Shown piece by piece: positions 4,218 through 33,295 of a DNA stretch of 40,218 nucleotides. Made by a program: the position numbers and the translations under genes. Origin of the DNA: Candidatus Moraniibacteriota bacterium. Lineage in GTDB: Bacteria; Patescibacteriota; Minisyncoccia; Moranbacterales; GCA-2747515. Below the pieces are notes generated by a model that worked only from the letters and a program-made list of their open reading frames with translations, was not told where the DNA came from and made no database searches. Every line of letters starts with the position of its first letter. The stretch's first letter is position 1. The stretch lies in contig JAGLWU010000010.1 of assembly GCA_023133275.1 (NCBI GenBank), positions 1-40,218 of the forward strand, written 5' to 3'.

Positions 4218-4237
4218 AAAGCCCGTGCGGCGAGCAC
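4218..4237 (+). repeat. Dispersed 20-bp motif, copy 1 (AAAGCCCGTGCGGCGAGCAC)
   Basis: Identical to the copies at 16281, 26749 and 33276. Confidence 0.95.
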
Positions 4238-4277
4238 TTTATTTATTTTTCTTGAGGATTTGAAAAAACTTAAAATT

Positions 4278-4306
4278 TTGCAACACCTTTTTTAAAATGT
4301 TACAAT
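4278..4306 (+). promoter_or_regulatory. sigma70 promoter of pheT
   Basis: TTGCAA, 17-bp spacer ending in TGn, TACAAT. Confidence 0.7.
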
Positions 4307-4344
4307 TGAGAATGTAAAATTAACTTTTTAAAATACTAAATTTT

Positions 4345-6759
4345 ATGAAATTTTCATATAACTGGCTCAAGGAAATAAGCGGAACTAAAAAAACAGCTCA
4401 AGAAATAGCAGATTTATTTCTAACACATAGCTTTGAAGTTGAAGAAATTATCGATTTAGGAAAAAATTTAGAAAATGTAGTTGTTGGTGAAGTTTTAAGT
4501 GTAGAAAAACATTCTGATGCAGATAAATTAAATGTAGCTAAAGTGAATGTTGGCAATGAAAAATTGCAGATTGTTTGTGGTGCATCAAATTTAGAAGTTG
4601 GACAAAAAGTTCCTGTGGCATTGATTGGAGCGAAATTACCAATGCCAGAAAATAAAGAAACTATTAAATTTTTTGAAATTAAAAAGGCTAAATTGCGAGG
4701 AATTGAGTCGAGTGGGATGATTTGTGCGGAAGATGAATTAGAGTTGGGAGAAAATCACGATGGAATTATGGTTTTAGCTGAAAATGCGGAAGTTGGTCAG
4801 TCTCTCGCAGAATATTTACAGTTGAATGATTTTGTTTTTGACATTGATATTTTACCAAATCGGGGACATGATTGTTTAAGTTATAATGGAATTGCACGGG
4901 AAATTGTTACTTTGGATCAAAATATTGATTTAAAAGATTGGCAGGAAAAAAATGTTGAGAATGATATTTTTTCTGATAAAAAAGGTGATAGTTTGAATAT
5001 TTCTATTGATACGGAAAATTGTAATCGCTATATTGGTACAAAGATTAGTGGTGTGAAAATTGGTGAGGCGCCAGAGTGGATGAAAGTAAGATTAAAAGCG
5101 TCAGGAATGAATTCTATTAATAATATTGTTGATATTACTAATTATGTGATGTTGGAAACTGGTCAGCCGTTGCATGCTTTTGATACAAATAAAGTTGAAA
5201 AAATTTCTGTTCGTCAGGCAAAAAATAAGGAAAAAATAATGTTATTAGATGATGATGAAATTGAATTGATTGAAGATGATATTGTAATTACTGATGGAAA
5301 AAATCCGATTGCATTGGCGGGTGTGATGGGTGGTAAAGATAGTGGAATTGCAGATGAGACGACAGATATTATTTTGGAAAGTGCTAATTTTAATTCCAGT
5401 TCAATTCGTTTTACACAACGGCGGTATAATTTGCAAACAGATGCAGCTTATCGTTTTGAGCGAGATATTGATCCTAATTTTACTGAGCAGGCGACAGTGC
5501 GAGCGATTGAGTTAATTCAAGAATTATGTGGTGGAAAAGTTGAAATTGTTAAAGATAATTATAATAAAAAAATTAAGCCGTGGACAGTTCAGCTTTCGGG
5601 TGAATACGTGAGAAAACTTTTGGGAACCGATATTTCTAGCGAAAAAATTGTGAATATTTTAGAGCGGTTGGGAATTGGTACAGATGGAAAAGCAGGTGAG
5701 GAAAAAATTTCTTGCATTATTCCAACTCGACGAAGGGATTTGCGAGGTCAGGAAGATTTGATTGAAGAAATTGGACGAGTTTATGGTTACGACAAAATTA
5801 AACCAATTCCAATTGTTGGAAATGTTGAATTGCCATATCGAAATGAACAGAGATTTTTTGAGCGAGCTTTGAAAGACATTTGTGTGGGAAGTGGTTTTAG
5901 TGAAATTAAAGGCTATTCTTTTTACGGAAAAGATCAAGCGGAGGCAATTGGTTTAGGTGAGAAAAAACATTTAGCTCTTTTGAATCCATTTAATGTGGAA
6001 CAAGATTTTTTACGACGAACTTTGGCGGTTCATTTGCTTTCTGCGGACAAGAAAAATTTGAGTTATTTTGATCAAGTGAATATTTTTGAAATTGGTAGGA
6101 TTTATAATCCAACTGAAAATTCTCTTCCTGATGAAAAATTAGTTTTTGGTGCAAGTGTGGCGAGTAAAAATAAAAAGGGTGAACAATTTTTTGAACTGAA
6201 AGGTTTGCTGGAAGTTTTATTTGAACGAGTTGGTTTGAATGATTTTTATTTCGATGATTCTTTAGATGAGACTGAACAATATTTAATTCCGTCTTTGCAT
6301 CCATCTCGACAAGCGGTAATTAAGATTGCGGACGGAAAGGTTTTAGGTTGGATTGGTGAAATGAGTCGAAATTCTCATAAGCACTTTGGCTTGAAAAAAG
6401 TTAAAGTATCAGTTTGTGAGATTGACATTGATAATTTGCTAGCGGAGACAGAGAAAGAGCGATTTTTTGAACCGTTGGCGAAGTTTCCTTTTGTGAATCG
6501 TGATTTGTCGATGATTGTTGGCGAAGAGGTCCGAGTTGGTGATGTTGAACGGGTGATTTATATGGCTGGTGGTGATTTGGTGAAAGATGTTGATTTGTTC
6601 GATCTTTATGTGAATGCTGAAAGCAGTGAGCGTTCAATGGCTTTTCGGATTACATTTGGAAATGTTGAGAGGACTTTGAAATCTGAGGAAGTTGATGAGA
6701 GGATTATTAAAATTATTGAGAGTGTTGAGGAGAAATTGGGAGTTGAGGTGAGGAAATAA
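4345..6759 (+). CDS. pheT: Phenylalanine--tRNA ligase beta subunit
   Basis: MKFSYNWLKE start, QIVCGASN, PNRGHDCLS, GQPLHAFD, DLIEEIGRVYGY, ferredoxin-fold anticodon domain RDLS...RSMAFRI. Confidence 0.97.
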   Translation: MKFSYNWLKEISGTKKTAQEIADLFLTHSFEVEEIIDLGKNLENVVVGEVLSVEKHSDADKLNVAKVNVGNEKLQIVCGASNLEVGQKVPVALIGAKLPMPENKETIKFFEIKKAKLRGIESSGMICAEDELELGENHDGIMVLAENAEVGQSLAEYLQLNDFVFDIDILPNRGHDCLSYNGIAREIVTLDQNIDLKDWQEKNVENDIFSDKKGDSLNISIDTENCNRYIGTKISGVKIGEAPEWMKVRLKASGMNSINNIVDITNYVMLETGQPLHAFDTNKVEKISVRQAKNKEKIMLLDDDEIELIEDDIVITDGKNPIALAGVMGGKDSGIADETTDIILESANFNSSSIRFTQRRYNLQTDAAYRFERDIDPNFTEQATVRAIELIQELCGGKVEIVKDNYNKKIKPWTVQLSGEYVRKLLGTDISSEKIVNILERLGIGTDGKAGEEKISCIIPTRRRDLRGQEDLIEEIGRVYGYDKIKPIPIVGNVELPYRNEQRFFERALKDICVGSGFSEIKGYSFYGKDQAEAIGLGEKKHLALLNPFNVEQDFLRRTLAVHLLSADKKNLSYFDQVNIFEIGRIYNPTENSLPDEKLVFGASVASKNKKGEQFFELKGLLEVLFERVGLNDFYFDDSLDETEQYLIPSLHPSRQAVIKIADGKVLGWIGEMSRNSHKHFGLKKVKVSVCEIDIDNLLAETEKERFFEPLAKFPFVNRDLSMIVGEEVRVGDVERVIYMAGGDLVKDVDLFDLYVNAESSERSMAFRITFGNVERTLKSEEVDERIIKIIESVEEKLGVEVRK

Positions 6760-6783
6760 GAGATTTTAAAAATAAAAGTATTT

Positions 6784-7773
6784 ATGAATAATCTAAAATT
6801 TATTGATTTTTGTGCAGGTATTGGAGGAGGGAGGCTTGCGTTTGAGAATCTAGGACTTGAATGTCTTGGTTTTTCTGAAATTGATAAAAATGCTGAAAAA
6901 ACATATAAATTATTTTATGGAGAAAACGAAAAGAATTATGGAGATTTAACAAAAATAAATACAGATGAATTACTAGATTTTGATGTAATGGTTGGAGGTT
7001 TTCCTTGTCAGACATTTTCTGTAATTGGGCAAAGAAAAGGAATGAAAGATGAAAGAGGTGAAATAATTTTTCATCTTATAAATATAATGAAGAAAAAAAA
7101 TGTTAAATTTTTTCTCTTAGAAAATGTAAAAGGTCTTGTAAATCATGATAAAGGAAGATCTTTAAAAATTATTTTAGAAGCTCTTAATGAAGCTGGTTAT
7201 CATGTAGATTGGAAGGTTTTAAGTAGTATCAATTATGGAGTTCCACAAATGAGAGAAAGAATTTATTTTATGGGAATTAGAAAAGATTTATTAAATGATA
7301 ATATAAAGTTTTCTTTTCCAAAAAATACTACACAAACAGCAAATGTTGAAGATTTTTTAATTGATGATAGTGATCTTACTTTTAATGAAAAACAACAAGC
7401 CTATAAAACTTTTCTAAAATATCTCAATAATAAATACAACCAAAACAAACATTTAATAGAAAAATTATTAGAAAGTGAATATCTTGTTTTAGATACAAGA
7501 CAATCAGATTTGAGATTATATTACAATAGAGTTCCAACTCTTAGACTTGGAAGACATGGAATTTTGTATGTAAAAAATGGAAAATTCAGAAAATTATCTG
7601 GCTATGAATCCTTACTGTTACAAGGATTTCCGAAAAAACTAGCAAAAAAAGCAAAAGAAAATATTGCAGAAGCTCATATTTTGAGACAGGCAGGAAATGC
7701 AATGACTGTAAACACGGTACAAGCAATAGCTGAAAAAATGCTAGATTTTGCAAAAAATTTAAAAATTAACTAA
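6784..7773 (+). CDS. C5-cytosine DNA methyltransferase, probably GCGC-specific; now orphan
   Basis: FCAGIGG, GFPCQ, ENVKGL, QMRER, QAGNA; TRD segment LDTRQSDLRLY..PTLR..RHG resembles GCGC methyltransferases (recalled); followed by a HinP1I-like stump. Confidence 0.9.
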   Translation: MNNLKFIDFCAGIGGGRLAFENLGLECLGFSEIDKNAEKTYKLFYGENEKNYGDLTKINTDELLDFDVMVGGFPCQTFSVIGQRKGMKDERGEIIFHLINIMKKKNVKFFLLENVKGLVNHDKGRSLKIILEALNEAGYHVDWKVLSSINYGVPQMRERIYFMGIRKDLLNDNIKFSFPKNTTQTANVEDFLIDDSDLTFNEKQQAYKTFLKYLNNKYNQNKHLIEKLLESEYLVLDTRQSDLRLYYNRVPTLRLGRHGILYVKNGKFRKLSGYESLLLQGFPKKLAKKAKENIAEAHILRQAGNAMTVNTVQAIAEKMLDFAKNLKIN

Positions 7774-7781
7774 AAGATTTT

Positions 7782-7859
7782 ATGAATGATAAACAAGCCA
7801 AAGGTTCAAAAACTGCAAAAGACGGATTTAAAAATGAGTATATTCTATGTTATAATTAA
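7782..7859 (+). pseudogene. Truncated N-terminus of a HinP1I-family restriction endonuclease
   Basis: Translates MNDKQAKGSKTAKDGFKNE then YILCYN*; GSKTAKDGFKNE matches the start of R.HinP1I as I recall it; absent from the ORF track. Confidence 0.7.
7848..7856 (+). promoter_or_regulatory. Extended -10 promoter of the second R-M cassette
   Basis: TGTTATAAT immediately after the endonuclease breakpoint. Confidence 0.55.
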
Positions 7860-7887
7860 ATTATCATAATAAATTTAAAAAATATAG

Positions 7888-8826
7888 ATGAAATTTATAG
7901 ATTTATTCGCTGGAATAGGTGGAATAAAAACAGGTTTTGAAAAAGTTGGTTTTGATTGTGTTTTTTCTAATGATTTTGATAAAAATGCAAAAATAACATT
8001 TGATTTGAATTTTTCTAATCCAATGGTTCTTGGTGATATTCAAGAAATTAAACTTGATGATATTCCTAATTTTGATGTTTTATGCGGAGGTTTTCCTTGT
8101 CAGCCTTTTTCGATTGCGGGATATAGACAAGGGTTCAAAGATGAAGATGGAAGAGGAAATTTATTTTTTGATATAGTTAGAATTTTAAAAGAAAAAAAGC
8201 CAAAAGCCTTTTTATTGGAAAATGTTAAAAATTTAAAAACACATGATAAAGGACATACAGTAAAAGTTATTTTTGAACAGCTTGAGAGTTTAGGCTATAA
8301 AGTTGATAAAGATGTTTTGAATACTATAAAATATGGAAATCTTCCTCAAAATAGAGAAAGAATTTACATTGTTGGTTTTTTAGAACAGGAAGCTTTTGAA
8401 AAATTTGAATTTCCAAAGAAGATAAAACTTACAAAAACTATCCATGATTGTTTGGAAAATAAAAAGATTGATGATAAATATTATTATAATGACAAACCTC
8501 TTTATGAAAAATTGAAGGATGATGTTATAAAAAAAGATACAGTATATCAATGGAGGAGAAAATATGTTAGAGAAAATAAAAGTGGCGTTTGTCCTACTTT
8601 AACAGCAAATATGGGAATGGGTGGTCATAATGTACCAATTATTTTGGATTCAAAAGGAATTAGAAAGCTAACACCAAGAGAATGTGCTAATTTTCAAGGG
8701 TTTCCGAAAAGTTATAAATTACCAGATATAGCGGATTCTCATTTATATAAACAGTTTGGTAATTCTGTTTCGATACCTGTAATAAAAAGAGTTGCAAAAA
8801 ATATTTATAAAGCTTTAAATAAATAG
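7888..8826 (+). CDS. C5-cytosine DNA methyltransferase, GCNGC-type TRD
   Basis: LFAGIGG, GFPCQPFS, ENVKNL, QNRER, QFGNSV; TRD YQWRRKYVRENKSGVCPTLTANMG resembles M.Bsp6I-like enzymes (recalled). Confidence 0.92.
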   Translation: MKFIDLFAGIGGIKTGFEKVGFDCVFSNDFDKNAKITFDLNFSNPMVLGDIQEIKLDDIPNFDVLCGGFPCQPFSIAGYRQGFKDEDGRGNLFFDIVRILKEKKPKAFLLENVKNLKTHDKGHTVKVIFEQLESLGYKVDKDVLNTIKYGNLPQNRERIYIVGFLEQEAFEKFEFPKKIKLTKTIHDCLENKKIDDKYYYNDKPLYEKLKDDVIKKDTVYQWRRKYVRENKSGVCPTLTANMGMGGHNVPIILDSKGIRKLTPRECANFQGFPKSYKLPDIADSHLYKQFGNSVSIPVIKRVAKNIYKALNK

Positions 8827-8828
8827 TT

Positions 8829-9953: not shown

Positions 9954-9977
9954 AAAAGAATTTGAGTAAATTAAAAA

Positions 9978-10235
9978 ATGACCTACTACGTCTACATCCT
10001 AAAATGCTCCGACCAAACACTCTACACAGGAATAACTACAGACCCAAAACGACGAATCCACGAACACAACAATTCCAATAAATTAGGTGCAAAATACACC
10101 CGACCTAGACGACCAGTAAAATTAGTCTACACTAAAAAATACAAAACACGCTCAGAAGCAACTAAAGAAGAAATCAGAATCAAAAAACTTTCACGAGAAA
10201 GCAAAAAATTATTAATCACAAAAAATACTTTTTAA
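9978..10235 (+). CDS. GIY-YIG nuclease family protein (UPF0213/YhbQ-like)
   Basis: YYVYILKCSDQTLYTGITTD..RR..EHN, GAKYTR, A.KEE..IK. Confidence 0.9.
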   Translation: MTYYVYILKCSDQTLYTGITTDPKRRIHEHNNSNKLGAKYTRPRRPVKLVYTKKYKTRSEATKEEIRIKKLSRESKKLLITKNTF

Positions 10236-10289
10236 ATAATTTATCATTTTTGTGTAGATTAAATTATTCTTAAAAAAGTTTAACGCTCA

Positions 10290-10298
10290 TGCTATAAT
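10290..10298 (+). promoter_or_regulatory. Extended -10 promoter element of gpmA
   Basis: TGCTATAAT. Confidence 0.55.
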
Positions 10299-10336
10299 AT
10301 TAAAATGATATTTATAATTTAAATAAAATATTTTTT

Positions 10337-15314: not shown

Positions 15315-16016
15315 ATGAATTTTCACATAATTACAATTTTTCCAGAAATTTTTGATTCCTATTTTTCAGAGTCAATTATTGGACGTGCTCAAAAAAAAAG
15401 TTTAATTAATATTAAAGTTTATAATTTGCGTGATTTTTCTGAAAATAAACACAAAAATATTGACGACACTCCTTATGGTGGTGGAGCGGGAATGGTTATG
15501 AATGTGAAACCTATTTTTAAAGCGATTAATCATATTAAAAATAAAATAATTTTTGAGGGAAGAGAAGTTGAAAAAGTTAGAACGATTTTGTTTGCGGCGA
15601 AAGGGAAAAAATATTCCCAGCAAGATACGGTTCGTTTTAATGATGATTTTACTGATTTAATTTTTATTTGCGGACGATATGAAGGTGTGGATGAACGGGT
15701 TGCTAAATATATTGCTGATGAGGAAATTTCTATTGGGGAATATGTTTTGACTGGGGGGGAAATTCCGGCGATGGTTGTGGTGGATTCTGTCTCTCGGTTA
15801 GTGCCAAATGTTTTGGGTAATAAGGAATCGTTAAATGAAGAGAGTTTTTCTTTTCAAAATGATTTGAATAATTCTGATGATGTTAATTTTAAAAAAAAAT
15901 TAGAGTATCCACAATACACGAAACCCAGAGAATTTAATGGTTGGAAAGTTCCAGAAATTTTATTAAGTGGTGATCATGGAAAAATTAAAAAGTGGAGGGA
16001 AAATAATAGATTTTGA
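15315..16016 (+). CDS. trmD: tRNA (guanine37-N1)-methyltransferase
   Basis: DDTPYGGGAGMV, CGRYEGVDER, SIGEYVLTGGE, LEYPQYTKP, LLSGDH. Confidence 0.97.
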   Translation: MNFHIITIFPEIFDSYFSESIIGRAQKKSLINIKVYNLRDFSENKHKNIDDTPYGGGAGMVMNVKPIFKAINHIKNKIIFEGREVEKVRTILFAAKGKKYSQQDTVRFNDDFTDLIFICGRYEGVDERVAKYIADEEISIGEYVLTGGEIPAMVVVDSVSRLVPNVLGNKESLNEESFSFQNDLNNSDDVNFKKKLEYPQYTKPREFNGWKVPEILLSGDHGKIKKWRENNRF

Positions 16017-16100
16017 AAAAGCATCAAGATTTAATAATTAAAAATTATTCGGAATCTAGGAAACTGTAAGATTAACAATGAAACTTTTAATTTTAATCTA

Positions 16101-16160
16101 AGATCCTGAATGAATTATTTAATTTTTTTACAAAAAATAAAATAATTTTTCAGGATGATA
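16101..16160. repeat. Long imperfect hairpin, REP-like palindromic element
   Basis: ATCCTGAA (16103-16110) pairs with TTCAGGAT (16149-16156), enclosing AATTATTT/AAATAATT and ATTTTTT/AAAAAAT. Confidence 0.6.
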
Positions 16161-16250
16161 TGACTTGAAAGACTTAAAAGTTTTATGATTTACCATTTTG
16201 GATTGAAAATTTTAAACCTTTGCATTACAATGATAAAAAATATTTTAGAA

Positions 16251-16282
16251 TTTCAACAAGTAGTCATGACTACTTGTTGAAA
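16251..16282. repeat. Perfect 32-bp loopless palindrome
   Basis: TTTCAACAAGTAGTCA|TGACTACTTGTTGAAA. Confidence 0.95.
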
Positions 16283-16300
16283 AGCCCGTGCGGCGAGCAC
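16281..16300 (+). repeat. Dispersed 20-bp motif, copy 2
   Basis: AAAGCCCGTGCGGCGAGCAC. Confidence 0.95.
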
Positions 16301-16304
16301 TTTT

Positions 16305-16332
16305 TTGATTTTTTTAAAAAAAAGTGTAAAAT
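16305..16332 (+). promoter_or_regulatory. Putative promoter upstream of proS
   Basis: TTGATT, 16-bp spacer, TAAAAT. Confidence 0.45.
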
Positions 16333-16520: not shown

Positions 16521-18194
16521 ATGAAACAATCAAAATTATTTGGAAAAAGCATTAAAGAAATTCCAGTTGGAGTTTCCACAAAAAATCATGAGTTTCTTTA
16601 TCGAGGAGGATTTATTCGTGAGTCAGTGGCTGGAAGATATTATTTTCTACCTTTGGGAATGCGAGTTCATGACAAGTTAGTTAAACTTATTGAAAAGGAG
16701 ATGGATAAAACTGGAGCACAGAAAATTGTTACTCCGACTTTGCATCAGCTCGAGCTTTGGAAAGAAACTAATCGAACGGATACAGCAGGTTTTGAATTGA
16801 TGACAGTGAAAGATCGGCGAGAGGCGGATTTTGCATTGGGTGGAACAGCAGAAGAAATGATTGTTGATTTAGTGCGAAAGTTTAATATTAGTTATAAAGA
16901 TTTACCATTTAACATTTATCAATTTTCCAATAAATTTCGTGATGAGATGAGAGCGAGAGGCGGGCTTTTGCGAGTGCGAGAATTTGTGATGAAAGATGCT
17001 TATTCTTTTCATGCGGACGAAGAAGATTTTAAGCGAGAATATAAGTTGATGGAAAATACCTATAAAAATATTTTTGAAAAGTGCGGTTTGAAAACATATT
17101 CAGTATTGGCGGATAATGGTTATATTGGTGGAGAATATTGTCATGAGTTAGTTGTCGAATCTGAGATTGGTGAATCTGATTTCTTTGTTTCTGAAGATGG
17201 AAAATATGTTGCTCATGAAGATGTGGCGGAATTTGATCGTGGTGAGATTAATCCAGATGATGAAATGAAAGAAGTGGAAACTATTGAACAGCCAGAATGG
17301 GTAAAGACAATGGATGATAATGTAAAACATTACGATTTGCCAGCATCAAGGTTTTTGAAAAATGTGGTATATCAAAATACGACTAATGGAGAGTTAATTA
17401 TTGTGGTGATTCGTGGAGATTTGGAAGTGAATAAAACTAAATTGGAATCAAAATTAAATTTAGTTGGTCAATTGGAGGCGGCGACTGATGAGGATTTGGC
17501 AAGTATTGGAACGAAGAGTGGATGGGTTCATTCTTGGGGACATGACGCAAAATATGTTGGTGATATTTCTTTGAAAAGTGTGAAAAATTTTATTGGTGGT
17601 CAGAAAGAGGAAAAGACAGATACAATTAATGTGAATTATGGACGTGATTTTGAATGTGAGATTTTGGATGACTTTGCGTTGGCGGAAGATAGATTTATTA
17701 AAGATGGTCAAAAATTGATTGCTAAAAAAGGTGTAGAAGTTGGAAATATTTTTCAGCTCGGTCATCATTATTCTGAATTAATGAATGCGACTTTCAAAAA
17801 TAAAGAAGGGAAAGATGAATTTTATTACATGGGTTGTTACGGAATTGGTGTTGGACGAACGATGGCGACGATTGCGGAAATTCATCATGATGAAAACGGA
17901 ATTATTTGGCCAGAAAATTTAGCACCTTTTAAAGTTCACTTGTTGAGTTTGAATGTTAATGAGAAAACGGAAGAGATTTATCGACAACTTTTGGATCAGG
18001 ATGTCGAGGTTCTTTTTGATGATCGTGATGTTCGACCAGGGCAGAAGTTTGCGGATAGTGATTTGATTGGTATTTCTTATCGTGTGGTGGTGAGTGAGAG
18101 GTCTTTGGAGGCTGGTGGTTTGGAGGTTAAGAAGAGGGATGAGAAAGAGGGGAAGATTATGAGTGTTGAAGAGGTTTTGGAATTGGTTAAGTAA
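16521..18194 (+). CDS. proS: Proline--tRNA ligase (bacterial type, with insertion domain)
   Basis: KFRDEMRARGGLLRVREFVMKDAYSF, EVGNIFQLG, MGCYGIGVGR, anticodon domain DDRDVRPGQKFADSDLIG. Confidence 0.97.
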   Translation: MKQSKLFGKSIKEIPVGVSTKNHEFLYRGGFIRESVAGRYYFLPLGMRVHDKLVKLIEKEMDKTGAQKIVTPTLHQLELWKETNRTDTAGFELMTVKDRREADFALGGTAEEMIVDLVRKFNISYKDLPFNIYQFSNKFRDEMRARGGLLRVREFVMKDAYSFHADEEDFKREYKLMENTYKNIFEKCGLKTYSVLADNGYIGGEYCHELVVESEIGESDFFVSEDGKYVAHEDVAEFDRGEINPDDEMKEVETIEQPEWVKTMDDNVKHYDLPASRFLKNVVYQNTTNGELIIVVIRGDLEVNKTKLESKLNLVGQLEAATDEDLASIGTKSGWVHSWGHDAKYVGDISLKSVKNFIGGQKEEKTDTINVNYGRDFECEILDDFALAEDRFIKDGQKLIAKKGVEVGNIFQLGHHYSELMNATFKNKEGKDEFYYMGCYGIGVGRTMATIAEIHHDENGIIWPENLAPFKVHLLSLNVNEKTEEIYRQLLDQDVEVLFDDRDVRPGQKFADSDLIGISYRVVVSERSLEAGGLEVKKRDEKEGKIMSVEEVLELVK

Positions 18195-25603: not shown

Positions 25604-26605
25604 ATGAAATCAGTTATAGTAAGTTTGTTGGTTGTGTTTTTATCATTAAATACAGCTTTCTCGGAATGTGTTGATGTTATTGTCATAAAACCAGTAGGAG
25701 CTATTGGAAATAGCAATGATGCGGGAGGGGTTAATTACCCTGATCAAGGCTACGAAGACTTCACAACCTACAAGCACCGAGTCTCAATGAAGCACGTCAA
25801 AGCTTCAATTCATGATAGAGATAAATACAGAAAAAAGCTGACTTTTCTCTACGATCAAGAAATCCCAAATATCGATCTCGAAGCTAAGGTGAGAAATAAA
25901 TATAATACACCAATTGAGGATGTATATATTGATTACTATTATTCACCAAATAAATGGTTTTCCAAAAATCATGACAAACTACTCGGAACCGATAAGATCA
26001 GTAAGATTAAAGGAAAGAAGAGCGTGGAAAAACATCTAAGAGAAATAGACATTTCCAGTCTTGAAATAGGAAATCACTATTTTTTCATAGATATCAGATA
26101 CACAGGAGGTCATAACATTAGTAGTCGCAACGACAAAACTGAGTTTGTCAAAATCTCTATAATCGGAGAGATCGAACCCGAAATCCCATCTATAGAGCCA
26201 GATTCAGACGGATCATTTCCAGTTTATAGATATGAAGATTTAGACTATGGTAACATACGATACAGTCTGAATTACATATCAAATCACGTAGCTTGGAATG
26301 CGTTCGCAGAACAGCAATTGGACACAACTCCAGTTTATGAACTTTGGTCAGGTTATCATTTCTTCTACGTTACAGGAGAAGAGGTACGTCAAGAACTGAT
26401 GAATGACAGAGGTTGGGAATATTTAGGTATAGCATTTTACGTGTATGATCAACTCTACTCAGGAACCATGCCAGTTTACAGAATCTACGATAATGATACT
26501 GGCGAACATCTCTACACTGCTGATGATCAAGAAAAAGATCAATGGATGAGCGTTGGAGATAAGAGAGTTGATGGTCCAGGTTTTTGGGTTCCAATTCAAC
26601 CTTAA
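25604..26605 (+). CDS. Secreted protein with Ig-like region and C-terminal DUF5648-like repeats
   Basis: Signal peptide; PVYRY/PVYEL/PVYRIY...GEHLYT repeats and GWEYLGIAFY. Confidence 0.65.
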   Translation: MKSVIVSLLVVFLSLNTAFSECVDVIVIKPVGAIGNSNDAGGVNYPDQGYEDFTTYKHRVSMKHVKASIHDRDKYRKKLTFLYDQEIPNIDLEAKVRNKYNTPIEDVYIDYYYSPNKWFSKNHDKLLGTDKISKIKGKKSVEKHLREIDISSLEIGNHYFFIDIRYTGGHNISSRNDKTEFVKISIIGEIEPEIPSIEPDSDGSFPVYRYEDLDYGNIRYSLNYISNHVAWNAFAEQQLDTTPVYELWSGYHFFYVTGEEVRQELMNDRGWEYLGIAFYVYDQLYSGTMPVYRIYDNDTGEHLYTADDQEKDQWMSVGDKRVDGPGFWVPIQP

Positions 26606-26618
26606 ATATTTTCTCTTG

Positions 26619-26634
26619 ATATATATATATATAT
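26619..26634. repeat. (AT)8 microsatellite
   Basis: Read directly from the sequence. Confidence 0.85.
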
Positions 26635-26683
26635 CTTACAAGATAATTCTTGAAGATAGATATATGGATATCAATTGAAATTT

Positions 26684-26735
26684 ACTCCCCGACTTTTATT
26701 TTTTTATTTAAAATAAAAGTATGGGGAGTTTTTTT
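26684..26735 (+). terminator. Intrinsic terminator with long stem
   Basis: ACTCCCC-g-ACTTTTATTTT...AAAATAAAAGT-at-GGGGAGT followed by a T-tract. Confidence 0.75.
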
Positions 26736-26748
26736 ATTTTTATGTATC

Positions 26749-26768
26749 AAAGCCCGTGCGGCGAGCAC
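26749..26768 (+). repeat. Dispersed 20-bp motif, copy 3
   Basis: AAAGCCCGTGCGGCGAGCAC preceded by ATGTATC. Confidence 0.95.
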
Positions 26769-26789
26769 AATTATTTTTTTGAAAAAACT

Positions 26790-26818
26790 TTGACTACCCA
26801 CTTTCTATCTGATAAACT
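26790..26818 (+). promoter_or_regulatory. sigma70 promoter of secA
   Basis: TTGACT, 17-bp spacer ending in TGn, TAAACT. Confidence 0.7.
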
Positions 26819-26859
26819 GAAGAAAGTTATATTTTTAAATTATTTTAATAAACAAAACA

Positions 26860-29514
26860 ATGTCCATATTCACAAAACTGTTCGGATCAAATGAAAGTCA
26901 AATAAAAAAGTATAATCCAATCGTAGAACAAATAAATTCACTCGAAAGTCAAATAAAAAAACTAACCGATGAAGAAATAAAAGAAAAAACAAAATCTTTT
27001 CAAAAAACAATTCAAAGCGAGGAAAAAACTTTGGATGAAATTTTACCAGAAGCCTTTGCTTTAACTCGGGAAGCGGCTCGACGAACATTGGGCGAGTGGG
27101 CACACAACACTCAATTGATTGGTGGAATGATTTTACATGAAGGAAAAATTACAGAAATGAAAACTGGTGAAGGTAAAACTTTAACTTCAGTTTTTCCAAT
27201 TTATCTTAATGCTTTGACTGGAAAAGGAACTCATTTAGTAACAGTTAACGATTATTTAGCAAAACGTGATTGCAACTGGATGGGCGTAGTTTACGAGAAA
27301 TTAGGTTTACAAGTAGCGTGCATCACTCACGAAGGTGGATTTCTTTACGAGGCGAATACGGTTGATCGGGATGAGGTGGATATTGAAATGGAAAATTTGA
27401 AAGCAGTTACAAAAAAAGAGGCTTATAATTCTGACATTACTTATGGAACGAATAATGAATTTGGCTTTGATTATTTACGGGATAATATGGCACAGTCTGA
27501 GGAACGATTGTCTCAACGGGAATTACATTTTGCAATAGTAGATGAGGTGGATTCAATTCTTATCGATGAGGCACGGACACCTTTGATTATTTCTGCACCA
27601 GACAGTGAATCGACTAAACTTTATGAAAAATTTGCTCAAATTGTTCCAAATCTTCAAATAGAAAAAGATTTTAATGTTGATGAAAAAACTAGAAATGCAA
27701 CTTTAACAGACGATGGAATTCAGAAAGTGGAAAAACTTTTAGGTGTGGGAAATATTTACGAAGAAGGGAAAGTTCAATATGTTCATCATTTAGAGCAATC
27801 TTTGAAAGCACATGCCCTTTTTACGAAAGACAAGGATTATATGGTTAAAAATGGTGAGGTTATGATTATTGATGAATTTACTGGTCGGGCGATGGAAGGA
27901 CGGCGTTATTCAGACGGTCTTCATCAAGCAATTGAAGCAAAGGAAAAAGTGGCGGTTCAGCGTGAATCAAAAACTTTAGCGACGATTACTTTTCAGAATT
28001 ATTTTCGAATGTACGATAAGTTGGCGGGTATGACGGGGACAGCGGTAACGAGTGCGGAAGAATTTAAGAAAGTTTATGAATTGGATGTTATCATTGTGCC
28101 GACAAATAAAGAAATGACTAGAAAAGATTTAGCGGATGTTGTTTATAAAAATGAAAAGGGAAAATTTAAAGCAATTGTGGAAAAAATTAAAGAGTTGCAT
28201 GAAGTGGGACAACCTGTTTTAGTGGGTACGGTAGCGATTGAAAAATCTGAGTTACTGAGCAATATGTTGAAAAAAGCAAAAATTTCTCACAGTGTTTTGA
28301 ATGCTAAATTTCATGAAAAAGAAGCTCAAATTATTGCTAATGCAGGTTTGAAAGGATCTGTTACAATTGCGACAAATATGGCGGGACGTGGTACGGATAT
28401 TAAATTAGGAGAAGGAGTGCGAGAAGTTGGCGGGCTTTACATTATCGGAACTGAGCGTCATGATGCTCGGCGAATTGATAATCAGTTACGAGGGCGTTCT
28501 GGACGACAAGGTGATGCTGGGACAACTCAGTTTTATATTTCTCTTGAAGATGAATTGATGCGACGTTTTGGCGGTGATCGTTTGAAAGGGATTATGGAGA
28601 AGATTGGTTTTGATGAGGATCAACCGATTGAAAATAAAATTATTTCTAAACAAATTGAAGGAGCTCAGTCGAAAATTGAAGGCTTTAATTTTGACGCACG
28701 TAAACATGTTTTAGATTACGATGATGTTGTTAATAAGCAAAGGGAGGTTATTTATAATCGACGGCGAAATATTCTAGAAAAATTAGATTCCAAAGAAGAG
28801 ATTTTAAAAATGTTTAATGAGGAAGTGGATGAAATTGTAACTGCTTATACAAATTTGGATAGACATAAATGGAGTGATTCTGAAATTATTAAAGAAGTGA
28901 AGGCAATTGCTCCTATTTCTGATGGATCTACAGAAAGTTTGAAAAAAATATTTGACGATGAAAGCAGGAATGATAGCGAAGTTATTGAAGAAGTAAAAGA
29001 ATTTTTAACGAAAGAATTACAGACTACTCACATTAAAAAAGAAACGGAAAATGGTGAGAATGCGATGCGAGTGATTGAGCGTTCAATTTTGATGCAGACG
29101 ATTGATCAACATTGGATGAATCATTTGGATGCGATTGATCATATGCGACAGGGAATTGGTTTGCGGGGTTACGGTCAGCAAGATCCTTTGATTGAATATA
29201 AAAAAGAGGCGTTCGGCATGTTTAACCAACTTTTGGGAAATGTTCGAAATACGGTTTTGCATACGGTTTTTCGGGCAACTGTTGTGAGTAATCAGGATTC
29301 AAGTGCAGTTTCTGAGTTGGCACGGAATATGAATTTTTCTGGAGCGGAGAGTAATCCTGAACAGTTTGCTCAAGTAGCGGAAATGGAAAATCGACAAATG
29401 AATGCGAATATGTCAAAAATTGAAAAACCTGTTCAATCTGAAAAGACTGTTGGGCGGAATGACCCTTGTTCTTGTGGGAGTGGGAAGAAGTATAAAAAGT
29501 GTTGCGGGCGGTAG
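26860..29514 (+). CDS. secA: Protein translocase subunit SecA
   Basis: MKTGEGKT, VTVNDYLA, DEVDSILIDEARTPLIIS, NQLRGRSGRQGD, SEC-C motif GRNDPCSCGSGKKYKKCCG. Confidence 0.98.
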   Translation: MSIFTKLFGSNESQIKKYNPIVEQINSLESQIKKLTDEEIKEKTKSFQKTIQSEEKTLDEILPEAFALTREAARRTLGEWAHNTQLIGGMILHEGKITEMKTGEGKTLTSVFPIYLNALTGKGTHLVTVNDYLAKRDCNWMGVVYEKLGLQVACITHEGGFLYEANTVDRDEVDIEMENLKAVTKKEAYNSDITYGTNNEFGFDYLRDNMAQSEERLSQRELHFAIVDEVDSILIDEARTPLIISAPDSESTKLYEKFAQIVPNLQIEKDFNVDEKTRNATLTDDGIQKVEKLLGVGNIYEEGKVQYVHHLEQSLKAHALFTKDKDYMVKNGEVMIIDEFTGRAMEGRRYSDGLHQAIEAKEKVAVQRESKTLATITFQNYFRMYDKLAGMTGTAVTSAEEFKKVYELDVIIVPTNKEMTRKDLADVVYKNEKGKFKAIVEKIKELHEVGQPVLVGTVAIEKSELLSNMLKKAKISHSVLNAKFHEKEAQIIANAGLKGSVTIATNMAGRGTDIKLGEGVREVGGLYIIGTERHDARRIDNQLRGRSGRQGDAGTTQFYISLEDELMRRFGGDRLKGIMEKIGFDEDQPIENKIISKQIEGAQSKIEGFNFDARKHVLDYDDVVNKQREVIYNRRRNILEKLDSKEEILKMFNEEVDEIVTAYTNLDRHKWSDSEIIKEVKAIAPISDGSTESLKKIFDDESRNDSEVIEEVKEFLTKELQTTHIKKETENGENAMRVIERSILMQTIDQHWMNHLDAIDHMRQGIGLRGYGQQDPLIEYKKEAFGMFNQLLGNVRNTVLHTVFRATVVSNQDSSAVSELARNMNFSGAESNPEQFAQVAEMENRQMNANMSKIEKPVQSEKTVGRNDPCSCGSGKKYKKCCGR

Positions 29515-29546
29515 ATGTTTAAATATTATTTGGATAACATATTTAT

Positions 29547-30200
29547 ATGAAAAAATCTACAAAAAAGTTAAAGAAAATTCCAGTTAAAGAAGTAGTAAAT
29601 AAAGTTTCTGTAGAATTAGCAGAAATTATAACGGTTAAAAATGATCTTGAGTTTTCAAAAACATCTTGTCAAATAATTTTATTAAATTCACATGATGGTC
29701 AATATGAAACAGTTGATATAGCTCTTTGGAACAGTGCGATCATTTCATTTTTTCGCTGTTTTGGTGGGGGAAAGAGGGGTTATAAGTTGGATAAAAAAAT
29801 TTTCGAAAACTTGCCTGGTGAGCCTATGAATTTTTATGATTTTTTAAAAAATTTACGAGATAAACATTTAGCACATCCAGTTAATATTTTTGAAGAAGTT
29901 AAAATAGGTGTAATATTTTCGGATGACTATAAAGAACTTCTAGGGATAAGTAATTTCTTCATAAAAAGATTACTTGAGACACCAGAAACTATTAAGCAAT
30001 TTATTGGTTTTATAAATGTAGCTTTAAAAGAGGTGAATTTTGAATTAGAAATAAAGAATATTCAGTTAGTTAATGTAGTTAAAAAAGAAAGTGCTATAAA
30101 TATATCAAAATGGGAAAATTTGAAATACGTAGTACCTGACTCTTTGAAGGCATCAGAGAAAAACCGAGTCGGAAGTAAAGAACCTAGATTTAAAAAATAA
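29547..30200 (+). CDS. Hypothetical protein with HEPN-like RDKHLAH motif
   Basis: LKNLRDKHLAH in a helical-looking 217-aa protein. Confidence 0.55.
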   Translation: MKKSTKKLKKIPVKEVVNKVSVELAEIITVKNDLEFSKTSCQIILLNSHDGQYETVDIALWNSAIISFFRCFGGGKRGYKLDKKIFENLPGEPMNFYDFLKNLRDKHLAHPVNIFEEVKIGVIFSDDYKELLGISNFFIKRLLETPETIKQFIGFINVALKEVNFELEIKNIQLVNVVKKESAINISKWENLKYVVPDSLKASEKNRVGSKEPRFKK

Positions 30201-30238
30201 ATATTTGTAAAATTATCAGTTGCATAATCAAAAAAATT

Positions 30239-30265
30239 AGACTATCCTTAAAGATAGTCTTTTTT
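30239..30265 (+). terminator. Hairpin/terminator overlapping a putative dxs promoter
   Basis: AGACTATC-cttaaa-GATAGTCT plus T-tract; TTGCAT (30220) 17 bp TATCCT (30243) overlaps it. Confidence 0.5.
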
Positions 30266-30308
30266 AAATTATTCAAAAAAGACAAAAATTAACAATTTAT
30301 ACAAAAAC

Positions 30309-32150
30309 ATGAAATACCCAATATTAGACAAAGTAAATTACCCAAAAGATTTAAGAAAATTACCAGTCGAAGAATTAGAAATTTTAAGTGCAGAAATTCG
30401 TCAATTCCTAATCCAATGCGTTTCCAAAACAGGAGGACACTTCGGTTCAAATTTAGGAGTAGTCGAATTAACAGTCGCTTTACATTACGTTTTCAATACA
30501 CCAAAAGATTTACTCGTCTGGGACGTTGGACATCAAACTTACCCACATAAAATTTTAACAGGACGAAAAAATCAACTTTGCACCATTCGACAAAAAGACG
30601 GGCTAGCACCTTTTCCAAAAAGAACAGAAAGTGAATACGACACTTTAGGCGTTGGACATTCCAGTACCTCAATCAGTGCAGCGGTGGGAATGAGTATTGC
30701 AAATAAAGATAAAAAAAATCCTCCGCAGACAGTGGTAGTGATTGGCGATGGAGCATTGGGTGGAGGAATGGTTTTTGAGGCGATGAATCACGCAGGCGAT
30801 GTCGGTACGGATATGTTGATTATTCTCAATGATAATAAAATGTCAATTTCACCAAATGTTGGAGCGATCGACAAATATTTAACACGACTTATTTCTTCAC
30901 AAAAATATTTAAAAATTCGTCGAAAAGGTAAAAAAATTCTTTCTCAATCTTCCTCTAGAATTCACAAACTTGTTCAGCGGGCGGAAAAGTACGCCAAAGG
31001 AATGATTACTCCCGGAACTTTATTTGAAGAATTAGGCTTTGGGTATTACGGTCCGATTGATGGTCATGATACAAAAATGTTAGTCAAAGTTTTAAGTAAT
31101 CTTAAAAAAGTGAAAGGTCCAAAATTATTGCACATAGTTACTCAAAAAGGTAAAGGTTGTGAATTTGCAGAAAGCGATGATTTTTCTCTTCATGCCGTTG
31201 CTCCATTTGATCCAAAAACAGGTAAATCTTTGAAAAAAAGTAGTTCAAAAACTTTTACAGATGTGTTCTCTCAGTGGATTATTAAAACAGCAGAAAAAGA
31301 TGAAAAACTTCATGCAATTACGCCAGCGATGTGTTCAGGATCTGGTTTAACAAATTTTCAAAAAGAATTTCCTGAGCGGTTTCATGATGTAGGAATTGCG
31401 GAACAACATGCAGTAACTTTTTCAGCAGGATTGGCTTGTCAGAGCAAAAAACCAGTAGTTGCGATTTATTCGTCTTTTTTGCAACGAGCGTATGATCAGT
31501 TAATTCATGATGTGGCGATTCAAAATTTGAATGTTCTTTTTGCAGTGGATCGAGCGGGGTTGGTTGGTCCAGATGGGGCGACACATGCGGGAAGTTTTGA
31601 TATGGCGTTTGCACGAAATATTCCTAATTTAACAATTCTTGCTCCAACGACAGCAGAAGAATGTGAAGCGATGTTGGATTGGGGCTATGAGTATGAAGGT
31701 CCAGTTATCGTTCGTTATCCTCGTGATAAAGTAATTTCTAGTAAAAAAGATAATTTTCAAGAAATTAAATTAGGGAAATCTGAAATTATCAGAAAAGGTA
31801 AAAAAATAGTTATTTTAACGTTCGGTACAGTTTTGAATAATTGTGTATCTTTGGCGGAAAAGTTAAATGCGACTTTGGTGAATATGCGTTTTGTGAAGCC
31901 GTTGGATAAAGAAATGATTCGAGGATTGGCTAAAAATCATAAAACTTTTTTGACGGTTGAAGAGGGAGCTGTTTTGGGCGGGGTGGGAAGTGCGGTTGGT
32001 GAATTTGTAGCACAGGAAAATTTGAATGTTACGGTAAAAAATATTGGTTTGCCAGATAAATTTTTACAACACGGAAGTCGGGAGGAATTATTGGTTGAAG
32101 CGGGATTGGATGAAAGGAGTATTAAAAATGTTTTGAAAAGTTTAGTTTGA
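30309..32150 (+). CDS. dxs: 1-deoxy-D-xylulose-5-phosphate synthase
   Basis: GGHFGSNLGVVELT, WDVGHQTYPHKILTGR, GHSSTSISA, GDGALGGGM..EAMN, IAEQHA, DRAGLVGPDGATH. Confidence 0.97.
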   Translation: MKYPILDKVNYPKDLRKLPVEELEILSAEIRQFLIQCVSKTGGHFGSNLGVVELTVALHYVFNTPKDLLVWDVGHQTYPHKILTGRKNQLCTIRQKDGLAPFPKRTESEYDTLGVGHSSTSISAAVGMSIANKDKKNPPQTVVVIGDGALGGGMVFEAMNHAGDVGTDMLIILNDNKMSISPNVGAIDKYLTRLISSQKYLKIRRKGKKILSQSSSRIHKLVQRAEKYAKGMITPGTLFEELGFGYYGPIDGHDTKMLVKVLSNLKKVKGPKLLHIVTQKGKGCEFAESDDFSLHAVAPFDPKTGKSLKKSSSKTFTDVFSQWIIKTAEKDEKLHAITPAMCSGSGLTNFQKEFPERFHDVGIAEQHAVTFSAGLACQSKKPVVAIYSSFLQRAYDQLIHDVAIQNLNVLFAVDRAGLVGPDGATHAGSFDMAFARNIPNLTILAPTTAEECEAMLDWGYEYEGPVIVRYPRDKVISSKKDNFQEIKLGKSEIIRKGKKIVILTFGTVLNNCVSLAEKLNATLVNMRFVKPLDKEMIRGLAKNHKTFLTVEEGAVLGGVGSAVGEFVAQENLNVTVKNIGLPDKFLQHGSREELLVEAGLDERSIKNVLKSLV

Positions 32151-32157
32151 TTTTTTG

Positions 32158-32166
32158 TGTTATAAT
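32158..32166 (+). promoter_or_regulatory. Extended -10 promoter element
   Basis: TGTTATAAT 7 bp after the dxs stop. Confidence 0.55.
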
Positions 32167-32191
32167 TAACGTAAAATAGTAAAATAAGTAT

Positions 32192-32665
32192 ATGGAAAGT
32201 AATAATTTGTTAACTGATAAAGTCCAAAATAATAAAAAAGAAATTAAAAATTTTCAAAAGATTATAATTATATTTGGAATAATTAGTTTATTAATTGTCG
32301 TAAATTTAGTATACACTAATTCTTCTATTTCAATATTGAGTAGAATAGAAAGTGAATCAAATATAGATTTTCCTGATAGTTCGAATATAATTGATTTTGA
32401 TAAAAAACCACCCATAGATCCTATAATAATAGCAAAAATATCAATATCAGAATCATCAGTTGAAAAAATGAAAGAAGATATAGAATCAAAAACTGAATAT
32501 AGCGGTTCTGTTAGTGGGGCATTATCAGAGTCGATGAGTTGGTGGACGCCTAATCAAGTTATTGTTGAAAAAACATATTGGTCAAGTGAACACATACTTG
32601 TACACGTTATTTTATCAAAACAAAATAATGAATATTTTGTTTATATAGAATGCTCTGTTTTTTAG
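32192..32665 (+). CDS. Hypothetical membrane-anchored protein
   Basis: Single N-terminal TM segment; own promoter. Confidence 0.6.
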   Translation: MESNNLLTDKVQNNKKEIKNFQKIIIIFGIISLLIVVNLVYTNSSISILSRIESESNIDFPDSSNIIDFDKKPPIDPIIIAKISISESSVEKMKEDIESKTEYSGSVSGALSESMSWWTPNQVIVEKTYWSSEHILVHVILSKQNNEYFVYIECSVF

Positions 32666-32687
32666 AATGAAACCTTTTTAAAATTAT

Positions 32688-33224
32688 ATGATTATAAAAA
32701 ATTTAATTCAAGTGGGAAATCCTTTATTAAAACAAAAAAGCAAAATTGTTAAAAATATAAATTCAAAAGAGACACAAAAAATAATTAAAAATTTAATTGA
32801 TTCATTAAATTATCATGAATTAGTAGGATTAGCTTCTTCTCAAATTGGAGAAAAATCAAGAATATTCGTTACAAAAATTGACAAAACACCAAACAGAAAT
32901 CCTGATGAAATTGACAAGCTGAGAATTTATATTAATCCAAAAATAATTTGGAGTTCTAAAAAGGAAATTATTATTTATGAAGGTTGTGGCAGTGTCGCTT
33001 ATGCGAAATTTTTTGCACCAGTTAAAAGACCGGAAAAAATAATCATTGAAGCGACTGATGAAAAAGGTGATAAATTTAATTTGAAAGTTGAGGGACTTTT
33101 AAGTCGAGTGATTCAACATGAATACGATCATCTTGAAGGAATAGAGTTTACAGAAAAAATTACTGATATGAAAAAAATAATGAGTTCAGGAGAGTATAGA
33201 AAAATGATTTTTGCAAAAAGTTAA
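32688..33224 (+). CDS. def: Peptide deformylase
   Basis: GLASSQIG, EGCGS, QHEYDHLEG. Confidence 0.9.
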   Translation: MIIKNLIQVGNPLLKQKSKIVKNINSKETQKIIKNLIDSLNYHELVGLASSQIGEKSRIFVTKIDKTPNRNPDEIDKLRIYINPKIIWSSKKEIIIYEGCGSVAYAKFFAPVKRPEKIIIEATDEKGDKFNLKVEGLLSRVIQHEYDHLEGIEFTEKITDMKKIMSSGEYRKMIFAKS

Positions 33225-33275
33225 TTTAAAATTATTTAAATTTAATTTTAAATCCAATTTTAATTCAATGTATCA

Positions 33276-33295
33276 AAAGCCCGTGCGGCGAGCAC
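33276..33295 (+). repeat. Dispersed 20-bp motif, copy 4
   Basis: AAAGCCCGTGCGGCGAGCAC preceded by ATGTATCA. Confidence 0.95.

Follow-up and report, generated by a model that had tools for sequence, protein, structure and literature searches.

Small hairpin repeats of bacterial spacers, such as repetitive extragenic palindromic (REP) sequences and miniature inverted-repeat transposable elements (MITEs), are as a rule limited to one species and linked with a transposase that is known. In Neisseria, the dRS3 element, an inverted-repeat site restricted to one genus and linked to a phage integrase-like system, is a constant repeat of about 20 bp that bounds the variable intergenic modules of the neisserial intergenic mosaic elements (NIMEs) and is suspected of being a site of insertion or recombination. 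Uptake signal sequences (USS) and DNA uptake sequences (DUS) occur about equally in both orientations, are frequent inside genes and are specific to one lineage. Here we describe a GC-rich 20-mer, AAAGCCCGTGCGGCGAGCAC, which stands in four copies in a stretch of 40,218 nt from a Candidatus Moraniibacteriota bacterium (assembly GCA_023133275.1, contig JAGLWU010000010.1, positions 1 to 40,218; hereafter the window) and which is the constant 3' end-module of intergenic mosaic repeats.

Hairpins of this general kind are the substrates of Y1 HUH transposases, which, according to one account (PMC6006769), bind subterminal hairpins whose foot is preceded on its 5' side by a guide tetranucleotide and which work on the template of the lagging strand. 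The same account gives, among the criteria for a REP, a GT[AG]G tetranucleotide located 0-2 nt 5' of the hairpin.

Results

Copy number, placement and orientation of the motif

The original prediction, drawn from the letters of the window, had described four identical intergenic copies of the motif on the + strand, and a window search recovered the exact 20-mer at 4218, 16281, 26749 and 33276, always on the + strand and always between the calls of a crude open reading frame (ORF) calling. No further match at up to 3 mismatches was found in the window, and 100 dinucleotide-preserving shuffles gave none. Direct reading also agreed with the G+C content that had been given for the 17-nt core (14/17). 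The features concerned are the following:

4218..4237, + strand: motif copy 1, exact match, solo form with ATGCATTA upstream, before pheT (spacer between ORFs 3252-4130 and 4345-6759)
16281..16300, + strand: motif copy 2, exact match, 3' terminus of a mosaic repeat with trmD upstream and proS downstream (spacer between ORFs 15315-16016 and 16521-18194)
26749..26768, + strand: motif copy 3, exact match, solo form with ATGTATC upstream (spacer between ORFs 25604-26605 and 26860-29514)
33276..33295, + strand: motif copy 4, exact match, solo form with ATGTATCA upstream, lying between the peptide deformylase gene (def) and the atp operon (spacer between ORFs 32688-33224 and 33368-33640)
16254..16279, + strand: hairpin module CAACAAGTAGTCATGACTACTTGTTG adjoining copy 2, recognized from its fold and the family listing
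16102..16164, + strand: long AT-rich hairpin module GATCCTGAAT...TTCAGGATGATATGAC of the copy 2 mosaic, recognized from its recurrence

The genes 3' of the copies are those that had been named, namely pheT, proS and secA and, for copy 4, a 90-aa ORF followed by F0F1 ATP synthase subunit A, and the upstream element ascribed to copies 1, 3 and 4 is indeed present immediately 5' of them as ATGCATTA or ATGTATCA. In the assembly to which the window belongs (G000; 1,028,523 bases in 74 contigs, 93% complete, 30% GC), 134 copies were found when 2 mismatches were allowed, the reversed control giving 0, and 147 when 3 were allowed, of which 72 are exact, in agreement with the proposal of a genome-wide oriented cis-element. 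The sister species, whose 1.47-Mb genome (G001) is the only other one of the genus and with which G050, the genome of locus L071, was counted as one on account of an equal rounded size and similar counts, holds 144 copies at up to 3 mismatches, likewise 72 of them exact; both are fragmented metagenome assemblies. Nearly all G000 copies (141/147) lie outside ORF calls and 6 lie inside, half of the copies show decay-like C-to-T or G-to-A changes, and a T-run often follows on the 3' side.

The orientation of the motif follows replication, for which the local GC skew (+/-5 kb, with an absolute skew below 0.08 taken as ambiguous) served as a proxy, and not transcription. Copies running with the skew, against it or in ambiguous regions numbered 115, 9 and 23 in G000 and 108, 17 and 19 in G001. 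Where both neighbouring genes are on the leading strand, 142 copies share their direction and 8 oppose it, while between lagging-strand gene pairs only 2 point with the genes and 13 run with the skew, thereby opposing the genes (Fisher p = 2.9e-12). In convergent and divergent spacers taken together, where the direction of the genes is uninformative, 46 copies run with the skew vs 11 against it (p = 3e-6). Copies with low-GC upstream DNA are equally polar (20 vs 3 and 39 vs 2), and along the long G001 contigs the motif changes strand where the skew changes sign. Genome-wide, 754 of 895 genes run with the skew, which is why the features of the window all lie on one strand.

Hairpin structure

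The motif has the form of a 4-bp hairpin, GCCC-GNNC-GGCGA-GN'N'C (stem columns 11-14 with 20-23), with a GTGC/GCAC stem enclosing the GGCGA loop. On its own it folds no better than shuffles (copy 1, -5.9 kcal/mol, z 0.23; copy 4, -5.8 kcal/mol, z -0.32), and it is the covariation of the stem that bears out the GTGC/GCAC hairpin of the original prediction. The covariation set comprised 51 aligned copies from the window and 36 other loci, collected with a pattern that fixed the constant columns (GCCC and the loop) and left the stem columns free. In this set 99% of the stem cells pair, and cells changed on both sides of the stem number 15 vs 2.5 +/- 1.3 in shuffles, none of the 500 shuffles reaching 15. 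Other carriers of the motif show the stem types GTGC/GCAC, GCGC/GCGC, GTCC/GGAC and GCCC/GGGC, in which the two middle pairs change together and GCCC, the closing pairs and GGCGA stay constant; in one of these carriers (G848, see below) our own count from the listing gave Watson-Crick stems in 65 of 69 copies, belonging to four stem types. These compensatory changes support the hairpin. The 5' flank reads GCCC in 51/51 aligned copies, a figure that the collecting pattern itself fixed, and GCCC or a one-base decay of it in G000, whereas similarity between copies ends past the last C of the stem.

Mosaic modules and their turnover between species

Upstream of the motif G000 carries several module families, among them an CAACAAGGGGTCATGACCCCTTGTT hairpin, GTAG-hairpins, a unit ending in AATGGTGA and a unit ending in TATGTATCAT; long AT hairpins with AATGACAG at their end often stand before them. 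All upstream families end at AAAG or ATAG, at the same base before AGCCC. The commonest family includes the CAACAAGTAGTCATGACTACTTGTTG module that adjoins copy 2, where the 78-nt stretch 16235-16312 containing it folds at -22.9 kcal/mol (z -5.05; 0/200 shuffles as good), and the long AT-rich hairpin modules (...TTCAGGATGACATG / CCGGAATGACA) recur 5' of many motif copies. A GTAG hairpin stands directly upstream of 21/147 motifs in G000 and of 14/144 in G001.

A comparison of 222 syntenic spacers found the motif in both species in 26, always in the same orientation, in G000 only in 18 and in G001 only in 11, so that the sister species retains the motif at 26 of the 44 syntenic G000 sites. Identity between the two species at four-fold degenerate sites is 60.3% (saturation 33%); by our own binomial arithmetic, a neutral 20-mer keeps at least 17 matches with a probability of about 0.016, from which about 0.7 of the 44 sites would be expected vs the 26 seen. 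Of the 26 shared sites, 18 have homologous DNA in the 60 nt downstream and only 4 in the 60 nt upstream, and the shared motif often carries a different module in each species. Private copies, on the other hand, have been gained or lost as whole module-plus-motif blocks. Exact copies make up 12 of the 26 shared, old sites vs 9 of the 18 private ones. Moreover, a hairpin of 19-21 nt is nested between GAGC and CAC in 2 G000 copies and at 7 of the 26 shared sites in G001. This nested hairpin, CTGYCTG...CAGRCAG (e.g. at G000 C19:15728 and C20:28643 and at G001 L019:1427), is far commoner in the sister species and may carry a 2-bp GC duplication.

The four copies of the window illustrate these outcomes. 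Copy 1 has an orthologue, ATAGCCCGTGCGGCGAGCAC, in the sister species; at the copy 2 site the motif is kept there with a different hairpin module upstream, and at the copy 4 site it is kept with a hairpin of about 21 nt inserted between GAGC and CAC. The copy 3 site of the sister species is without the motif, and homology there starts at the -35 box. Several of the pieces assembled from four DNA runs end in or beside repeats, for instance with an end at 16280 or a start at 16253 or 26753, and the contigs from these four runs contained no usable insertion or excision joint.

Placement relative to promoters, essential genes and breakpoints

The original prediction had tied the motif to the promoters of essential genes. 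Sigma-70-like hexamer pairs do start 40, 4, 21 and 25 nt after the four copies, as it had claimed; however, such pairs are no more frequent (99) than in shuffles of this AT-rich DNA (96.2 +/- 9.4), and the promoter distances are therefore not evidence. Among the four putative promoters, that of secA is the only one with conservation support in the sister species; it lies at 26790-26818, 21 nt after copy 3, which itself stands 13 nt past a terminator-like hairpin (26684-26735), just as copy 1 stands 39 nt past an intrinsic-terminator-like hairpin (4152-4178). Genome-wide, the density of copies per kb of spacer was about equal for tandem, convergent and divergent spacers (0.98, 0.89 and 0.77 in G000; 0.49, 0.50 and 0.38 in G001). 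Since convergent spacers have no downstream promoter, a special tie to promoters or essential genes is unsupported. The median distance of 83 nt to the next start codon (n=107), compared with 177 nt from the previous stop (n=97), results from the position of the modules 5' of the motif. Some copies are abutted by a unit TTCAGAATGACAGGAAA...TTAAATTATGTATCAT (window 33264-33275 and 26737-26748, the flanks of G000 C1:1237 and C49:8623, and G001 copies) that resembles a near-consensus sigma-70-like promoter (ATGACA, 18-nt spacer, TG-n-TATCAT); this predicted promoter would start transcription inside the motif. Likewise, TATAAT abuts the motif in several Clostridia records.

The claim that the motif marks the right edge of accessory blocks did not generalize, as the genes 5' of copies 2 and 4, trmD and peptide deformylase, are core genes. 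Among G000 gene pairs with G001 orthologues, the motif was present in 44/224 conserved adjacencies vs 27/138 broken ones (odds ratio 1.0), and it was rarer (40/386) beside genes without an orthologue in G001. The original prediction had named random placement relative to promoters, essential genes and breakpoints as a refuting outcome, and by this test its proposals of a promoter-linked site and of an att-like site for cassette exchange both fail. Because the orientation tracks the GC skew, the spacer densities are about equal and the breakpoints are not enriched, the association of the motif with promoters, with essential genes and with cassette exchange is incidental. For annotators, this means that conserved GC-rich boxes before housekeeping promoters in AT-rich genomes can be repeat ends, not regulatory sites.

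Occurrence in other lineages

Carriers outside the genus were reached by scanning one genome per species for the exact 17-mer, and those given here come from among the matches listed, so that their number is a lower bound. Among these matches the same 17-mer was found in spacer repeats of unrelated organisms, while most single matches lie in high-GC DNA and look like chance or coding occurrences (e.g. CPCGEH-type codons). The high-copy carriers among them, with their pattern counts, are:

G048, Flavonifractor metagenome genome: 183-194 copies
G848, genome of locus L100, titled as a Flavonifractor isolate: 69 copies
G849, Clostridiales record: 50 copies
G044, Deltaproteobacteria record: 49 copies
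G045, Deltaproteobacteria record: 50 copies
G046, Deltaproteobacteria record: 54 copies
G852, Nitrospinaceae record: 14 copies
G049, Oscillospiraceae record: 16 copies

The motif is absent (0) from the other 39 genomes of the family and order of the window's organism. With a search pattern that leaves the stem free (GCCCGNNCGGCGAGNNC), 400 other Patescibacteria genomes yielded at most 2 matches each, which is not above background, and 400 genomes from the phylum of G048 yielded at most 8 each, with similar numbers for the controls. High copy number is therefore confined to scattered lineages, which favours horizontal spread of a selfish element over an old host function. Matches in Gluconobacter (8 vs 5 for the control) were treated as background.

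The Flavonifractor-type genomes contain units of 356-425 bp that carry the hairpin in inverted orientation at either end and are wedged between the T-run and the A-run of convergent terminator-like hairpins. Twelve inverted pairs were found there, 274-425 bp apart, 11 of them at 356-425 bp, and serial (-,+) hairpin pairs recur at about 338 nt. In contrast, only 3 close inverted pairs, 238-476 nt apart, were found in G000, where most copies are single. The Deltaproteobacteria records present another arrangement, namely head-to-tail arrays with a period of about 90 nt in which the hairpin alternates with a constant unit of about 73 nt (L077 3880-4090; G044, G045). A further Deltaproteobacteria locus (L092, flanks of 304-320) shares GTTCAGGATGACAGG and GTGGGGG-type words with the G000 mosaics, which suggests that the whole mosaic system, not the 17-mer alone, may be related across phyla.

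Most of the 15 viral contig stretches with matches are GC-rich or read as coding. One 5.7-kb viral contig (L159) is the only viral stretch with two tandem stem variants in a spacer (292-340 and 460-500), a spacer that also contains two TGTGGATAA words resembling DnaA boxes and lies upstream of an 884-aa ORF. At locus L072 the motif abuts what we read as the 3' part of a partial tRNA-Lys-like sequence; ARAGORN called no tRNA, and the idea of a tRNA association was dropped.

RAYT loci, RNA families and literature

The genus does have REP systems of its own. The three RAYT-like genes (RAYT, REP-associated tyrosine transposase) of G000 and several of G001 are flanked by GTAG...CTAC palindromes and not, on both sides, by the motif. 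They include the Y1 genes at G000 C9:12471-13031, C73:24606-25139 and C12:11783-12193 and at G001 C13:6547-7140 and C4:31222-31764, and GTAGGGGTTTGCCAGTGGCAAACCCCTAC flanks the first of these on both sides. These loci represent classical REPtrons, here in a small Patescibacteria-like genome that has several paralogues, each accompanied by a REP family of its own.

The original prediction had not recognized the motif as a described element, and our searches gave the same result. Rfam returned no match to the motif at the gathering score in the window or in 6 loci of other carriers, no match at E <= 1 in 8 loci, and only weak unrelated matches at E <= 10 in window 16060-16330 and in L165. The 17-mer, its complement, their RNA spellings and two sub-strings were not found in the main text of the papers searched (supplementary REP catalogues, such as that of PMC6006769, may contain atypical hairpins of this kind), and the literature on REPs or hairpins across phyla, on repeats of Patescibacteria and on RAYTs in the candidate phyla radiation (CPR) contained nothing on the motif.

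Two further properties of the window may be recorded. Its GC skew is very strong (0.12-0.45 per 2 kb), and every ORF of more than 130 aa that is not nested in a longer one is encoded by the + strand. In addition, 6784-7773 and 7888-8826 encode adjacent paralogues resembling cytosine-5 DNA methyltransferases, a family that has six members in G000 and is the largest paralogue family found there.

Discussion

With a probability of roughly 0.5, we consider the motif to be a REP/MITE-like, non-autonomous single-strand hairpin element or landing pad on the lagging-strand template. This reading builds on the observed copy number, the intergenic placement, the covarying stem, the polarity with the GC skew, the retention at orthologous sites while upstream modules turn over, the presence or absence of whole blocks and the patchy distribution across phyla; the single-strand mechanism, the mobility and the enzyme are inferred. 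The motif would either be copied itself or serve as a landing pad beside which other hairpin modules insert, and either way it would be active in single-stranded form at the replication fork, where a dedicated or a host enzyme would handle it. Action in this form would explain why its top strand is found on the G-rich strand, the template of the lagging strand, irrespective of gene direction. The position of the motif between terminators and promoters would then be a by-product, spacers being the only DNA that would tolerate it. Such an element is analogous to the hairpin-plus-guide-tetranucleotide substrates of Y1 transposases (PMC6006769).

Several observations weigh against this reading. 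No cognate enzyme for the motif was found. The Y1_Tnp domain (PF01797) does not track the motif: it is absent from the carriers G048, G049, G848, G849 and G852 and present in 17 motif-less relatives (19/41 genomes in all), and no motif lies near the Y1 genes at the 10 loci examined. Neither G000 nor G001 yielded TnpB, reverse transcriptase or IS110, and the inverted motif pairs of G000 enclose ordinary genes and no transposase. Likewise, no target-site duplication was seen, the Flavonifractor-type units being flanked by a T-run at one end and by an A-run at the opposite end, and no paralogue family of G000 or G001, the multi-copy transposases of G001 included, stands in a fixed arrangement to the motif. 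The 4-bp stem is short for known HUH substrates. Private copies are no more intact than old ones, which would also be expected if a host function were under selection, and the GC skew is only a proxy for replication direction. Moreover, since both assemblies are fragmented metagenome assemblies, insertion sequences may be missing from them.

One explanation for the lack of a co-occurring enzyme would be that a conserved host component of the replication fork, and not a dedicated transposase, reads the motif as a minimal, horizontally spreading single-stranded DNA element or landing pad. We regard this as unlikely; if true, it would explain jointly this lack, the occurrence of the same 17 nt in Patescibacteria, Clostridia, Deltaproteobacteria and Nitrospinaceae, with constant loop and 5' flank and a free stem, and the polarity observed in this genus. 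The motif offers a compact and testable substrate, a single oligonucleotide, with which the protein that reads or mobilizes repeats of this kind may be sought, and at least one carrier, titled as an isolate (L100), may be culturable.

Some of the evidence for an element of this kind could also be read in a different way, with the motif as a resident, att-like landing pad at whose 5' edge REP hairpins and modules insert and whose loop-side arm receives the small hairpin, so that it would be a target and not a passenger. The retention of motif and downstream DNA at the shared sites (18/26 homologous, compared with 4/26 upstream), the common end base of the module families before AGCCC and the constant position of the nested insert between GAGC and CAC point in this direction, and the genuine REP-RAYT systems of both genomes would provide the insertion activity. 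However, private copies are gained or lost in blocks that include their modules, a GTAG hairpin precedes only 21/147 and 14/144 motifs, no recombinase could be tied to the motif and synteny breakpoints are not enriched; a pure target would, in addition, explain neither the rise to about 145 copies nor the high copy numbers in other phyla, so that we consider it rather unlikely. A polar DNA signal of the host for replication or segregation, comparable to FtsK-orienting polar sequences (KOPS), Chi, Ter or strand-skewed architecture sequences, would account for the strong skew polarity independent of gene direction, for retention at 26/44 syntenic sites, well above the neutral expectation, and for the equal integrity of old and young copies. 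Yet the motif is absent from the 39 genomes of the family and order and not above background in the 400 of the phylum, and therefore cannot be a core chromosome function. Its near confinement to spacers, the inverted pairs without net polarity in Flavonifractor-type genomes and the decay-like C-to-T or G-to-A changes in half of the copies likewise make a host signal improbable.

At the RNA level, the hairpin could be a 5'- or 3'-terminal stabilizer, an insulator or a weak terminator. Consistent with this, it is co-oriented with the flanking genes in 142/150 leading-strand tandem spacers, a T-run often follows it, an opposite-strand scan calls GCTCGCCGCACGGGC+TTTTT terminator-like, and a subset of copies is abutted by a -10-like TATCAT in this genus, or TATAAT in Clostridia, with an ATGACA -35-like box 18 nt upstream. 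Between lagging-strand gene pairs, however, 13 of the 15 copies lie antisense to the neighbouring genes, shuffled sequences fold as well as the motif alone, its orientation relative to the adjacent terminator is reversed in Flavonifractor-type genomes compared with G000, and it matches no Rfam family, which leaves an RNA element about as improbable as a host signal. Finally, high copy number, sharp motif boundaries and a position upstream of promoter-like hexamers in the four window copies would suit a DNA uptake sequence or an activator binding site for housekeeping genes, and the GTGCGG word that the original prediction pointed out is presumably common to the motif and the Pasteurellaceae uptake sequence. 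In line with its doubts about a classical activator site, though against its suggestion of an uptake tag, we regard both as very unlikely, because the strong strand polarity and the covarying stems are unexpected for a double-stranded tag or a fixed protein site, unrelated phyla carry the identical sequence, the motif is nearly absent from coding DNA (6/147), its density is equal in convergent spacers, which have no promoter, and its distance to the hexamers varies from 4 to 40 nt.

Comparison with known systems

Compared with REPs, bacterial interspersed mosaic elements (BIMEs) and REP doublets forming hairpins (REPINs), which are mobilized by RAYT (TnpA-REP), the motif is alike in being a high-copy intergenic GC-rich hairpin with a tetranucleotide at its 5' foot, in forming mosaics and in being kept at orthologous sites, and genuine REP-RAYT loci occur in the same genomes. 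It also agrees with REPs in being extragenic and abundant (147 and 144 copies; 141/147 outside ORFs). However, its tetranucleotide is GCCC and not GT[AG]G, its stem has 4 bp compared with the 7-20 paired bases in the basal stem of a REP sensu Nunvar/Quentin, and it neither flanks RAYT genes nor co-occurs with them, carriers without any Y1_Tnp match being known. The motif thus fails the defining tests of REPs. REPs are, furthermore, usually species-specific, whereas the sequence of the motif is shared across phyla. The hairpin with a 4-nt 5' flank and a strand bias that fits the lagging-strand template recall the subterminal hairpins of IS200/IS605 elements and their miniatures, a mechanism on that template being described in PMC6006769. 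Unlike these, the motif has no tnpA or tnpB beside it, no second matching end or cleavage tetranucleotide was found for it, and sequence similarity stops at the last stem base.

A likeness to MITEs such as the Correia elements is seen in the Flavonifractor-type genomes, where the hairpin forms the inverted ends of 356-425-bp units between convergent terminators, in accordance with the terminal inverted repeats around units of 50-500 bp that characterize MITEs; presence and absence as blocks is a further common trait. In contrast, the G000 copies are mostly single ends, with only 3 close pairs, the ends are themselves covarying hairpins, and neither a target-site duplication nor a parent insertion sequence with motif ends was found. 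Like dRS3 in the NIMEs, the motif is a constant repeat at the boundary of variable intergenic modules; it differs in being one polar hairpin that is spread across phyla, with no recombinase identified. With KOPS and Chi it shares a strong orientation bias with replication, judged by the GC-skew proxy, and with uptake sequences a high copy number and a sharp motif. KOPS, Chi and uptake sequences are, however, 5-12-mers that also occur in genes and are lineage-specific, whereas the motif is a 17-20-nt hairpin of spacers that is absent from sister genera and shared with distant phyla. The equal orientations of USS and DUS likewise differ from its polarity (115/9 and 108/17), as does their frequency inside genes from the 6/147 copies within ORFs and their restriction to one lineage from the high copy numbers of the same 17-mer in other phyla. 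Among Rfam families it matches no curated covariance model, at gathering or E-value thresholds, for the window and the loci of other carriers.

What is new and of interest is the constancy of loop and flank across phyla together with the replication polarity in this genus. The 17-nt hairpin departs from the usual small intergenic repeat in that its loop and flank are invariant across at least four phyla, in that it has bloomed to 50-190 copies in scattered lineages, and in that one Patescibacteria genus has laid it almost exclusively on one replication strand.

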